Of a stretch of 64,000 bases of DNA, positions 11,058-36,737 are shown one piece after another (within the stretch, counting starts at the first letter, position 1; each line of letters opens with the position of its first letter). Position numbers and translations under genes: made by a program. The notes beneath the pieces were generated by a model that saw nothing but the letters and a program-made list of their open reading frames with translations, had not been told where the DNA came from and did no database searches. The stretch covers positions 192,001-256,000 of the forward strand of contig JAHQJS010000004.1 in NCBI GenBank assembly GCA_019057385.1. Direction: 5' to 3'. This DNA comes from Candidatus Borrarchaeum weybense (GTDB taxonomy: Archaea > Asgardarchaeota > Sifarchaeia > Borrarchaeales > Borrarchaeaceae).

Positions 11058-12434
11058 TTGGTGGTGACGTTTATCAGAGAAAAGATCTCCTTCCTGCAAG
11101 CTAGCATAATCTCTTTATTTAAAAAAATTGGTTCAAAATCCACTTGGAATGACGATCGCGTTAAAATCTTCTTTATTGCACTTGTAATCTATCTTTTTTC
11201 TCTATCTGTTTTTCGAGCTTTTCACTCGGAGGATGAGTTCAGTTATTTCTACTTGACTTATTCTATTGTCGAAAACCGAAGTTTTACAATCGATCCTATT
11301 GCAGGACATCATTTAAGCAACACCGAAAACTTCGTGCAATATGATGGGAATTGGTATTCAAAGTATCCTCCTGGTTTGCCTTTTCTCGCAATTCCATTTT
11401 ATCTTGTTGGAAGATTCATTTGGCAGTTAATGGGATTCAATGGATTCCCGTTGATTATTATGTGTTCAATTAGTAGTTTTTCTGCCGCATTTTCTCTTGT
11501 CATAGTATATGAGTTCTGTACGTTCTTCAAATTCAGTTATATAGCAAAAAGAGCAACAATTGTCACATATGGATTTGGAACAATAGCGTGGGTGTATGCG
11601 AAGACCTTTTTTTCACACTCTATTGCTACGCTTTTCATTTTATTGAGTTTATATTTATTCATTTCAATGACAAGAGATGAAAAAGAGGATTCAGTTTACA
11701 TGAAGTCGTTACTATCTGGAATAGCAATAGGGCTTGCTACCCTCATTCGCTATACAAGTTTCCTTTTTGTATTTCCTTTGGTCTTTTATTTTGTCCTAAA
11801 ACCTATGTCTCTGAAAAAGGAGCGAGCAACACTTTTTATTTTCCCTCTCCTAATATTCATTCTACTTGCTGGGTGGTACAATTTCATTTGTTTTGATAGC
11901 CCCTTCATTACAGGCTATCATTTAAATCAATTGTATGGAAATGAAACGGAACGATTTACAACTCCTATTTACATAGGATTATGGGGTCTCCTTATTTCTC
12001 CGAAAAGGGGGTTGTTTATTTATTCGCCTGTTCTTTTGTTTAGCATTATCGGTATAAAAGAACTCTATACAGAAGTAAAAGAAGAGACAGTTCTCCTAAT
12101 AAGTTCCTTTATGATACTGTTGTTGGTCTATTCTGCATGGTGGTATTGGCCTGGTGGTCTTTGTTATGGACCTCGTTTGCTGCATGAAGCTATTCCACTC
12201 TTCACAATTCCAATAGGAAAATCCATAGACTCATATAAAAATAAAAGGATATTTTGGATCGCCTTTATTGTGCTTCTATGCTTCAGTATTTATGCACAGT
12301 TTGCTGCCGTAGTTACTGACTTCATAACCACAGATTATCCAACATCATTTAATGAAATTGGACTGATTGCTGTATCGAGGAAATTATTCAATGGAGAATT
12401 CGATACCTTGCTTAGTAGACTTCTTGGAATCTAA
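11058..12434 (+). CDS. GT-C membrane glycosyltransferase; paralog of 32954..34324
   Basis: SEDEFSY, YSKYPPG, GTIAWVYAKTFF, GLLISPKRGLFIYSP, WPGGLCYGPR. Confidence 0.8.
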   Translation: MVVTFIREKISFLQASIISLFKKIGSKSTWNDDRVKIFFIALVIYLFSLSVFRAFHSEDEFSYFYLTYSIVENRSFTIDPIAGHHLSNTENFVQYDGNWYSKYPPGLPFLAIPFYLVGRFIWQLMGFNGFPLIIMCSISSFSAAFSLVIVYEFCTFFKFSYIAKRATIVTYGFGTIAWVYAKTFFSHSIATLFILLSLYLFISMTRDEKEDSVYMKSLLSGIAIGLATLIRYTSFLFVFPLVFYFVLKPMSLKKERATLFIFPLLIFILLAGWYNFICFDSPFITGYHLNQLYGNETERFTTPIYIGLWGLLISPKRGLFIYSPVLLFSIIGIKELYTEVKEETVLLISSFMILLLVYSAWWYWPGGLCYGPRLLHEAIPLFTIPIGKSIDSYKNKRIFWIAFIVLLCFSIYAQFAAVVTDFITTDYPTSFNEIGLIAVSRKLFNGEFDTLLSRLLGI

Positions 12435-34373: not shown

Positions 34374-36176
34374 ATGTCTAAAATCTGGCGGTCTAACACT
34401 TTTATTTTATTAGTGCTTTTTTGCGTTTCTGTTCTTATTAGGGTTATTCCCATGCAAAAATGGGTTTATGGATTAGATGAAGCTATGCATCTAATTGCAC
34501 CCTCTTTTCTTGCAGGATCTAAAGACCCAGGTACCAAACCAGGCTACGCTTTTATATTGATCATTATTTTTATAATTCTAAATAGTCAGCATCCATTTTT
34601 TGCGCGGTTGTTGACAGTTATCTTTACAAGTTTAATACCTTTTGTTGGTTTTTCTTTTGGCAAAAAACTTGGAGGAGAAAAGACTGGTTTGATTACTGCA
34701 ATTTTCTTAACGTTTCATCATAGGCTTTTTGATCTTTCCTACTGGATTATGACAGATGTTCCATTCACATTTCTCTCATTTCTTAGTACTTATTTCGTCG
34801 TCTGTAATGTTCAAAAGTCTGAGAAATCTGAAACAAATATACATCTCACATTAATTACAGGCATACTTTGTGGGCTCTCATATTTATTTCGACAAATAGG
34901 GATTTATCTTGTCCTCATGGTTATTCTACTGTATTTTGTAACAAAGGGCAACTTGGCAGTCAAGTTTAAGGGTTTTATTGGATTTTTTATGGGAGTAACA
35001 ATCATGTTATTTCCATGGTTTCTTTGGAGTTATATTCAATTTGGTGTTTTAGACCCTGCTACTTCTGTTATTAATATTTCTTCTTTTCCCGTTATCCATG
35101 TCAATTTATTGACCTATATTTTGCTTTTCCTTGTCCTAACCGCTTCTAGTGTAATAATATGTTTGATAATTCATTATAGAAACAAATATTTTGGAATAAA
35201 AAAACAGCTTGGTATTTTTGTTGCATGTAGCATTTCTGCCTTCTATGTTTTTGCATTAATTTATTTTGTATATTTTAAAACAAAAGGTGTCTTTAAACTT
35301 CTACTTTATTATTTCGTACAAATACCTGGGTTGGTATTAGGATTCGATCTAATTAATCAGTATCAGGTAACTCCTTATGCTATCATCATTTCAATCATTA
35401 TCTTCCAAATTTTATTAGTTGGACTTGTGATCGGCTATCGAATGAACAGGCTATTTACGAGGGTTACCCTACTCTCCATTATTATATTGCTTATATTTTT
35501 GGTGAACATTATTTATTATAAATCACGCTATTTTTATCCAATTATTCCTTTGCTAACACCCTTTTTGTGGATTGGGTTGTTTAAAATCAGGGATTCTTCA
35601 ATTTCCGTTTTACGAAAATTTTACTATCGGTATCCTAACTATTTTAGAAAGGGTTTCTTACTCTCATTTCATAGATCATGCAGTCTTATCATAAGCATTA
35701 TGTTTATCACTGTAATTCTATTTCCGAATATTGTAGCAGACGGCTTAGCAAATAATGATTATTTATCAACTGATGACATGGTTGTTACATCTCCATTATG
35801 GAGAGAATATATCGAGGCTGCTCTTTGGTTTAAAGAAACTAGTGATCCGCAAGCTAAAGTGATGGCATTTAAAAACTTTGATTTTGAGTATTATTCGCAA
35901 CGAAAGTGTATCGCACCGTCTCAACGAATATATAATGAATACTTTCGAAACAATAAACAAGCATATGTCACGGAATTAATGACTTATATGAAGGCAAACA
36001 ACATAACCCATATCGTTTTTGGGCCTTTTGGATATTCAGATAATATCCTATTTTGGCTTTCTGATCCAGATACAGCACCTTCTTATGTAGAAGTAATTTA
36101 CTTAAGAAATTCGCCTAAAGTAATCATATATTTGATTCAATGGTCCAAATTTACGCCAGCATCTCCTTTTGATTAA
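34374..36176 (+). CDS. GT-C membrane glycosyltransferase (PMT_2-like)
   Basis: GLDEA.H, PGY, IMTDVPF, YLFRQ.G, SRYFYP; many TM segments and a C-terminal soluble domain. Confidence 0.8.
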   Translation: MSKIWRSNTFILLVLFCVSVLIRVIPMQKWVYGLDEAMHLIAPSFLAGSKDPGTKPGYAFILIIIFIILNSQHPFFARLLTVIFTSLIPFVGFSFGKKLGGEKTGLITAIFLTFHHRLFDLSYWIMTDVPFTFLSFLSTYFVVCNVQKSEKSETNIHLTLITGILCGLSYLFRQIGIYLVLMVILLYFVTKGNLAVKFKGFIGFFMGVTIMLFPWFLWSYIQFGVLDPATSVINISSFPVIHVNLLTYILLFLVLTASSVIICLIIHYRNKYFGIKKQLGIFVACSISAFYVFALIYFVYFKTKGVFKLLLYYFVQIPGLVLGFDLINQYQVTPYAIIISIIIFQILLVGLVIGYRMNRLFTRVTLLSIIILLIFLVNIIYYKSRYFYPIIPLLTPFLWIGLFKIRDSSISVLRKFYYRYPNYFRKGFLLSFHRSCSLIISIMFITVILFPNIVADGLANNDYLSTDDMVVTSPLWREYIEAALWFKETSDPQAKVMAFKNFDFEYYSQRKCIAPSQRIYNEYFRNNKQAYVTELMTYMKANNITHIVFGPFGYSDNILFWLSDPDTAPSYVEVIYLRNSPKVIIYLIQWSKFTPASPFD

Positions 36177-36235
36177 CTGGCGATTCTTTGAGAAACAATG
36201 TGCTTTTTCGGCCAGATATTTGAATTTGTGTTAAA

Positions 36236-36470
36236 GATTTTACAAAGTTAGATTAGTGAACTACCATCCAACAAGTGGAATGGCTTCCTGCTTCACAGAC
36301 GACCTGCGGCGTCTCTAACCATACCGTTACCTGGTATCGGCTTAACACAGGCTTTAAATCGGGTAGTCCCTGCCCTAATGTGTCCCCTTCCAGACCCACT
36401 GGGCTTTACGGCATACAGGGTTCAGAAGGGTACTCGCATGCCGACCTCTTGCCTGCAGGTAGACACATGT
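36236..36470 (-). ncRNA. Putative TnpB omegaRNA-like RNA (scaffold plus ~20-nt flank-derived guide); ends approximate
   Basis: GC-rich multi-hairpin tract ending at the IS right end, downstream of TATA-like TTTAAATA (36496..36489). Confidence 0.5.
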
Positions 36471-36579
36471 CATATGTGTGCGAAAACCTATTTAAAATTT
36501 AGAGTGACATGGGTGAAAGTGAAAATAGTAATGCACTTCATCCCCCCAACACGATGAGGGGTCTTCTTGCGAAGAAATG
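36256..36579 (-). mobile_element. Non-autonomous IS200/IS605-family element (324 bp) with left end, right end and tnpB 3'-end/omegaRNA-like segment
   Basis: Minus strand: target TTTAT | CATTTCTTCGCAAG-AAGA-CCCCTCA..TGGGGGG-ATGAA (left-end hairpin) ... GGGCAGGGACTACCCGATTTAAAGCCTGTG (GQGLPDLKPV, TnpB C-terminus-like) ... GAAG-CCATTCCA..TGGATGG-TAG-TTCAC (right end). Confidence 0.85.
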
Positions 36580-36737
36580 ATAAAATAACTTGAGAAAAAA
36601 TGGACGAACTCACATTGAGTAATGAAGATGACATTATGAAAATCGGATAAGATTATGAGTAATCTAGTTAACTTTGATAACAATAAAATTATCTTTACAG
36701 AAACGTGAATAAAATTTAGATTGGAGTTCAGCAATCT

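Follow-up and report, generated by a model that had tools for sequence, protein, structure and literature searches.

A protein-less IS200/IS605 mini-element of an Asgard archaeon that is probably a promoter-driven, stand-alone omegaRNA cassette

The window analysed here, a 64,000-nucleotide stretch of the genome of Candidatus Borrarchaeum weybense, carries on its minus strand a gene-less mini-element of the IS200/IS605 type, 324 bp long (36256-36579), in which both subterminal hairpins are present (Table 1). A PMT-like glycosyltransferase gene lies on one side of the element and a gene for a YfhO-like membrane protein on the other, and the G+C content is 0.46-0.51 within the element versus 0.30-0.35 in its surroundings. 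On the minus strand, the sequence TTTTAT (36585-36580) is followed by the element, which runs from 36579 to 36256. The ends are asymmetric, each bearing an imperfect subterminal hairpin, and are without terminal inverted repeats. The right hairpin, CCATTCCA CTTG TTGGATGG with one bulged T, is preceded directly by GAAG and followed directly by TAGTTCAC; it is located 8 nt from the element end, with its CUUG tetraloop at -20..-17. A first-pass annotation of the locus had described 324 bp with both subterminal hairpins, and all features named in it are present in the sequence.

Single-base insertions and deletions between copies break every reading frame of the element, which rules out a conserved one, and no conserved ORF was found in the 324 bp. 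What is left of tnpB amounts to about 10 codons (GQGLPDLKPV), and further translated similarity to TnpB was not found in the window element; the earlier statement that tnpA and nearly all of tnpB are missing is therefore correct. In an independent assembly (L225, the Logan assembly of SRR14802572), the contig with the YfhO-like neighbour gene stops 300 nt upstream of that gene, inside the element, as is expected where repeats break assemblies; the contig of a related genome (G002) that bears the left flank also stops at the element.

Table 1. Positions of the features of the mini-element and its immediate flanks within the window, listed in the direction of the minus strand
Feature	Position	Strand	Remarks
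Target and presumed TAM, TTTAT (cleavage tetranucleotide TTAT)	36580..36584	-	Directly 5' of the left end; TTAT precedes every family member, mostly as TTTAT
Protein-less mini-element "type A", 324 bp	36256..36579	-	Boundaries from a 14-copy alignment; flanks unrelated
Left DNA guide AAGA	36562..36565	-	Element positions 15-18; 14 nt separate it from the element end, and the left hairpin follows directly
Left-end subterminal hairpin (CCCCTCA..TTGGGGGG)	36542..36561	-	Element positions 19-38
TATA-box-like TTTAAATA	36489..36496	-	Element positions 84-91; core TTAAATA
Conserved RNA-like block, 212 nt	36256..36467	-	94% identity among copies; 79% of columns invariant
5' domain	36379..36467	-	S1 (UGUGUC/GACACA), S2 (ACCU/AGGU), pseudoknot P1 + P2; not tnpB-derived
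Hairpin H3 (GGGCAG GGA CUACCC)	36360..36375	-	Also present in tnpB elements, with GQGLP as its translation; corresponds in position to ISDra2 stem 1
Stem 2, GCCUG (36348-36352) with CAGG (36287-36290)	36287..36352	-	Encloses stem 3, i.e., H4 (36319-36340) and H5 (36297-36314); RNAalifold
Right end	36256..36287	-	DNA guide GAAG 36284-36287; hairpin 36264-36283; TAGTTCAC, whose TCAC (36256-36259) is the cleavage site
Flank predicted to supply the 20-nt guide (TAATCTAACTTTGTAAAATC)	36236..36255	-	Position only

The genome to which the window belongs (4.18 Mb in 8 contigs) was searched with the element. Two full-length eukaryote-like actin genes of this genome (C4:895388-896497 and C5:134969-136078, both on the minus strand; Pfam Actin, 455 bits each) fit an Asgard archaeon. 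The search yielded three further near-full-length copies, which are 86-89% identical to the window element, as well as some 45 others whose similarity is confined to the ends. Each of these copies and places follows TTAT, in most cases as part of TTTAT, and has GGTAGTTCAC as its last letters; the flanks become dissimilar precisely there, and for this reason the window element is not a chance resemblance. Pairing of left with right ends separates the family into four groups. Group F comprises 13 tnpB-only elements of about 1.37 kb with an ISDra2-like TnpB and the same ends and target as type A; type B consists of deletion minis about 255 bp long, of which there are about 13; type A comprises 4 elements of about 325 bp, the window copy included, one of which has no left hairpin; the remaining group is a single 330-bp element akin to a 1.6-kb element. 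Of what the first-pass annotation had proposed to look for, further copies and, with the same ends, tnpB-only elements do exist.

Type B (for example, C4:23290-23553, C4:119663-119929, and C7:58342-58611) is a plain internal deletion of F, in which the left end, the promoter with its TATA box, and the mRNA leader are still joined to the last ~110 nt. The leader and the sequence downstream of it are predicted to form one long 5' hairpin. To judge from its sequence, type B is a second, independent protein-less guide-RNA lineage with the same H3-to-end block as type A. The type A copy without a left hairpin (C6:788455-788731, minus strand; L004) has in addition lost 1 nt of the TATA box, and its RNA block is still ~92% identical; lacking the left hairpin, this copy is presumably immobile.

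Type A is also found in four related genomes: six copies in the sister genome G004, two full copies and two contig-end fragments in G002, two copies in G005, which belongs to another family, and one decayed copy in G003, a member of the genus that is otherwise without type A. In the decayed copy (L200:1501-1619, i.e., G003:C261:13451-13569), H3 and parts of the pseudoknot described below are broken, and the bit score drops to 53 versus ~150 for intact copies. A fifth genome, G018, has two minis with the type A 5' domain. A covariance-model search of 151 related genomes recovered the 5' domain in genus g1, G005, and G018 only, and never within a tnpB element. A tight sequence pattern had no match in viral contigs and 11 matches in metagenome contigs, all with bit scores identical or nearly identical to those of known copies and thus of little or no added diversity. 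A loose, degenerate pattern gave 120 matches in genome contigs, which were discarded as chance matches; the archaeal ones among them failed the covariance model.

The ends of the element obey the base-pairing logic of IS608, whose guide and cleavage pairs were used for comparison and for which the target TTAC and the left guide AAAG are known. At the right end of the window element, TCAC is paired with GAAG. At the left end, the target and the left guide covary across three IS families of the genome, as TTAT/AAGA (family 1), TTAA/AAGT (family 2), and TTAC/AAAG (family 3), with position 4 covarying across the three pairs. The left guide is located 14-15 nt inside the end in all three families, all of which end in TAGTTCAC after GAAG. 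The assertion made from the window alone, that the IS608 rule holds at both ends, thereby gains independent support. Moreover, both end hairpins, the right one included, are maintained by compensatory changes in the copies of G005 and G018; in the G005 copies, the left hairpin has been swapped for a different, still complementary one.

Full-length TnpB frames (383-402 aa) are present in 12 of the 13 F elements, the thirteenth being truncated to 108 aa. The one F TnpB tested has three Pfam TnpB domains and matches ISDra2 TnpB structures at E 5e-54, and the RuvC motifs GLDVG, YENL, and RDHNSA are found in the F TnpB sequence. The genome as a whole has 41 TnpB-domain matches versus one Y1 tnpA (C7:194221-194586). 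The sole tnpA-bearing IS (C7:194106-195885) belongs to family 2 and encodes a Y1 TnpA frame of 156 aa together with a 428-aa TnpB; it shares the right-end design of type A, but has a different left hairpin and the target TTAA rather than TTAT. Right ends of this design, reading GGYAGTTCAC, number 103 in the genome. If any of these elements still move, 41 TnpB-domain matches and 103 right ends depend on a single tnpA gene. The description of the window element as a non-autonomous IS200/IS605 element agrees with all of this, i.e., with a gene-less element that has both ends, a cognate tnpB-only family, and one Y1 tnpA in the genome.

Type A has been mobile. For four type A copies of G004, the orthologous site in the window genome is empty and scarless, TTTAT being joined directly to the flank, with no target duplication; the flanks at these sites are mostly 90-97% identical, with one left flank at 75%. 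The empty allele proposed by the first-pass annotation is thus found for the type, through these four copies, and was not found for the window copy itself: G001 and G003 hold another gene at its site, and the G002 contig ends at the element. The orthologous site in G004 holds a 47-bp remnant, a left-end/right-end hybrid: the start of the left end leads into one half of the left hairpin, which is joined through the CTTG loop to one half of the right hairpin, and TAGTTCAC closes the remnant. The presence of this hybrid at the same site indicates that the window insertion predates the split of the two genomes, whose flanks are 77-81% identical there. The RNA block of the window copy is 93-96% identical to that of the G004 copies.

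The G004 remnant (L070; G004:C124, ~11822-11868), which occupies the exact orthologous site of the window element, is one of several "solo hairpin" micro-elements of 47-52 bp. In each, TTTAT is followed by the beginning of the left end, AAGA included, then by a single left/right hybrid hairpin whose loop is CTTG, and finally by TAGTTCAC; in the window genome, such units are located at C5:7213-7263, C5:113907 (-), C7:714463 (-), and C8:17166-17212. By their sequence, they look like either collapse products of recombination between the similar end hairpins or minimal transposable units.

Conservation within type A is distributed very unevenly. Pairwise comparison of the 11 full copies from the genus gives a mean identity of 0.94 in the RNA block, 0.79 from the left end to the predicted start, and 0.29 in the flanks; between the genus copies and those of G005, it is 0.87 in the RNA block and 0.45 in the left end. 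Analogously, invariant columns make up 79% of the last 212 nt but ~40% of the left end, where the only stretch that stands out is TTAAATA, with all seven columns invariant in the 11 full-length genus copies. The same TATA box is also found upstream of tnpB in the full-length elements. The usual spacing of archaeal transcription starts is 25-26 nt downstream of the TATA centre, and a transcript is predicted to start at that distance, at ~36467-36468, and to run into the flank. The internal TATA box that the annotation had noted ahead of a ~215-nt hairpin region accordingly has an invariant core, and conservation begins at the predicted start site. In silico, the evidence supports a 212-nt interior that behaves as a selected, structured RNA extending from the TATA-predicted start to the transposon boundary. 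This block, the putative guide RNA, is much more strongly constrained than the end of the transposon by which it is moved.

The structure of this block was modelled from 16 sequences with RNAalifold, which predicts helices S1, S2, P2, and H3, the long-range pairing GCCUG/CAGG around H4 and H5, and the right-end hairpin; H5 shows compensatory changes. The 5' domain contains an H-type pseudoknot, in which P1 (CGGCAU/AUGCCG) crosses P2 (CCCUUC..ACCC / GGGU..GAAGGG). Covariation in this domain was assessed on an alignment fitted to a covariance model without P1. In this alignment, 96.9% of cells are paired, and 12 of 32 pairs are compensatory, that is, changed on both sides, compared with 2.2 +/- 1.3 pairs in shuffled controls, none of 500 of which reached the observed count, and with at most 4 pairs in slid controls. 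Three of the six P1 pairs are compensatory as well. It should be noted that two divergent sequences, both from the genome G018, account for most of the compensatory changes, and that the energy of the single-sequence fold is unremarkable (z = -0.9).

The ~90 nt of the 5' domain are as conserved as the scaffold downstream and have neither translated nor nucleotide similarity to tnpB. No Rfam family reaches its gathering score over the window, and a search of 36100-36700 at E <= 10 gave chance-level matches only (E >= 0.8) on either strand of the element. Both the suggestion that the 5' ~100 nt are structured but not recognisably tnpB and the covariance model envisaged for the RNA are borne out, with ~90 nt of covarying helices far above the shuffles. 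An HDV-like ribozyme topology was considered for the domain and rejected: the nested P3/P1.1 is missing, and cleavage would split the covarying helix S1. In G018, the domain is carried by minis that have family-2-type left ends and follow TTTAAC. Because it also occurs on this other end type, the 5' domain behaves as a module moved between element types.

The 3' part of the RNA block is related to the guide RNAs of TnpB. The last ~120 nt of type A align with the right-end tails of F and type B, and the F tails share the predicted fold, with H3 and stems 2, 3, and 4; the parts common to the three are H3, GAGCCUG, the stem-3 hairpin, CAGGAAGCC, the right-end hairpin, and TAGTTCAC. The same ~120 nt also align with the tails of family 3, which encodes a TnpB of 430-445 aa and whose tails (e.g., C5:24040-24292 and C6:794359-794610 (-)) follow the same scaffold plan. 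In family 3, compensatory changes preserve an H3-type hairpin with a GGA loop inside the tnpB reading frame, so that this stretch is under both protein and RNA constraint. Stem 3 of type A (H4 and H5) differs from that of F, the family with the same target, and is closer to that of family 3, whose target is TTAC. This makes the scaffold a mosaic, and the fit of type A RNA with any resident TnpB a candidate pairing only. Among 41 related genomes, no tnpB element with the exact type A scaffold was found.

A layout reference is provided by the cryo-EM structure of the ISDra2 TnpB omegaRNA (PMC10097598). Type A RNA resembles it in that it ends at the boundary with GUUCAC, has a tetraloop at -20..-17 and the 3' strand of stem 2 at -35..-32, contains a variable stem 3, and has a 6-bp hairpin just upstream of stem 2; moreover, the resident F TnpB is a close relative of the ISDra2 protein. 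It is in this layout, together with the alignment to tnpB tails, that the earlier identification of the 3' part as the tnpB-tail/omegaRNA region finds its confirmation. Type A departs from ISDra2 in its target (TTTAT instead of TTGAT), in the 3-nt loop of its stem-1 counterpart, in a stem 3 divided between two hairpins, and in an RNA that lies outside any tnpB frame. Since the loop of the stem-1 counterpart has only 3 nt, the partner of the omegaRNA pseudoknot must lie elsewhere. The 3' strand of that pseudoknot, GUUCAC, is present, and there are several upstream GAA candidates, including GGAAG in the 5' domain, with none singled out. When the pseudoknot partner and a stem-1 equivalent were sought in full-length tails, the region upstream of H3 proved to be length-variable, with no consistent helix.

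Protein-less relatives of such elements have been described. According to Meers et al. 2023 (PMC10055086), PATE elements "often encode omegaRNAs" and would need TnpB in trans, and the PATE-like minimal IS200/IS605 elements of Geobacillus stearothermophilus encode omegaRNAs. Like these, type A is protein-less, has the ends of resident tnpB elements and an omegaRNA-type region at the right end, and presumably needs TnpA and TnpB in trans. It differs from them in being archaeal, in having a TATA-type promoter placed for a start at the first helix, in the added ~90-nt pseudoknotted 5' domain, which is not found in its protein-coding relatives, and in an RNA that is far more conserved than the left end. 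For the stand-alone omegaRNAs associated with OMEGA systems, activity in trans has been demonstrated (Altae-Tran et al. 2021, as recounted in PMC10691335). These, too, are guide-RNA loci that are mobilised although they encode neither effector nor transposase, and compatible effectors are present in the genomes that carry them; their activity was established by experiment, whereas that of type A is predicted from sequence, and the mosaic of two resident TnpB families plus an extra domain is a trait of the type A scaffold. Haloarchaeal PATEs (Dyall-Smith et al. 2011; PMC3119063), which predate knowledge of TnpB guide RNAs, are by description similar to type A in being archaeal, protein-less, palindrome-associated, and akin to IS1341-type tnpB elements.

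In our opinion, the window element is best explained as a non-autonomous element that has lost tnpB and has kept both ends, the TATA promoter, and a complete TnpB-type guide scaffold with a 5' pseudoknotted extension. We consider it probable that it is a promoter-driven, stand-alone omegaRNA cassette, i.e., a non-autonomous IS200/IS605 element (PATE/MITE) moved by TnpA and served by TnpB in trans. In the course of events that we infer, archaeal RNA polymerase would start on the first base of S1, ~25 nt past the TATA box; the ~212-nt scaffold would be transcribed, with read-through across the transposon boundary, so that the flank supplies the guide. TnpB from a 1.37-kb sister element, which has the same ends and the TTTAT target, would bind type A RNA in trans. 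TnpA would move the element in trans to new TTAT sites, and after excision TnpB would cut the vacated site (TTTAT plus flank), whereupon recombination would restore the element. Elements of this kind are already published (stand-alone omegaRNAs and PATEs acted on in trans; PMC10055086, PMC10691335); what type A adds is a pseudoknotted 5' domain that is conserved and covaries, a dedicated promoter geometry, an RNA constrained so differently from the left end, and the Asgard setting.

The only full-length match of the window guide in its own genome is its own flank, the other matches being 14-19 nt long and none of them following TTAT; likewise, for each of the 32 family-1 elements, its own flank is the only place where the guide matches over its full length, and a second-site target of any guide was not found in the genome. 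In viral contigs, the window guide had no match, either alone or with the TAM.

A rival reading, to which we give a minor share of credence, is that the conserved RNA does something other than direct TnpB to the vacated site, the omegaRNA-like 3' part being kept mainly through its overlap with the right end. Such an RNA might titrate TnpB as a decoy or competitor, regulate transposition, reach as antisense into the 3' end of the glycosyltransferase gene, or serve for self-processing or stabilisation. It would account for the equal conservation of the 5' ~90 nt, which do not derive from tnpB and have no Rfam family, for the mismatch of stem 3 to the same-target TnpB family, and for the presence of the 5' domain on different end types (TTAT in g1 and G005, TTAAC-type in G018), which suggests a partner-independent module. 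The full conservation of the scaffold from H3 to the boundary, however, extends well past the ~40 nt needed by TnpA, and the parallel ~255-bp lineage has retained exactly the same H3-to-end block; moreover, the unrelated contexts of the copies make a common antisense target unlikely.

Less probable still is an inert deletion derivative with no RNA function, in which the interior is conserved through recent spread or as single-stranded DNA structure for transposition. Because IS200/IS605 elements transpose as a single strand and the top strand has the RNA sequence, G.T wobbles and compensatory changes cannot separate DNA folding from RNA folding, and both the modest fold z-score and the decayed copy in G003 are in keeping with inertness. 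Recent spread, though, predicts a left end as similar as the interior, contrary to the 0.79 and 0.94 observed, and the window copy dates back at least to the split from G004, yet its RNA block agrees closely with the G004 copies. In G005, the left end has been replaced and the RNA is still 87% identical. The known cis requirements of transposition are the subterminal hairpins only, while the conserved block begins at the promoter-predicted start, behind an invariant TATA box. The domesticated guide that the first-pass annotation had ventured, here taken as an immobilised cassette that would aim TnpB, or a dead derivative, at a host or viral target, is very improbable: the retention of the RNA at 92% in the C6:788k copy, which has lost its left hairpin, would suit it, but in the genome the family-1 guides match in full only their own flanks, the window guide matches no viral contig, and type A is multi-copy and polymorphic between genomes, so that a selfish cassette fits better.

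If the window element is a stand-alone omegaRNA cassette, the type A family offers a clean natural case for asking why such RNAs persist, combining constraint, an own promoter, and a gained pseudoknotted domain within a large, active community of TnpB, TnpA, and mini-elements in an Asgard-type archaeon. A bolder extension, which we regard as rather unlikely, is that RNA-only cassettes are hyperparasites of TnpA/TnpB elements, held by RNA-guided homing, with the 5' domain as a new RNA module that gives them an edge; this edge would lie, for example, in 5' protection, self-processing, or better capture of TnpB. An improvement of RNA stability or TnpB loading by the 5' domain would be useful for compact TnpB editors and would also make type A an example of an RNA-only parasite living on a parasite.

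Two further features of the flanks deserve mention. In several elements, the first 4-10 nt of the left end are repeated as the first nucleotides of the element's own 3' flank: in L051 and L052 (type A of G004) and, in the window genome, at C4:893216 (-), C4:113253 (+), and C7:194107-194116 versus C7:195886-195895, with lengths of 7, 6, 6, 4, and 10 nt, respectively. When left ends and flanks were swapped between elements, matches of >=4 nt occurred in 0.5% of pairs. The repeat is an oddity, since IS200/IS605 elements should not duplicate their target. It could be a repair scar of TnpB-guided homing, left by incomplete trimming of a flank flap and subsequent microhomology priming at the edge of the left-end core, and thus possibly a physical trace of an empty site that was cut by TnpB and refilled from an occupied copy. 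The second feature concerns the flank beside the right end, the guide region included, where a comparison of window positions 36198-36255 with L070 shows 38 nt that are identical within surroundings of ~81% identity, and G004 has lost the RNA at this site; this stretch may reflect a terminator or chance heterogeneity.
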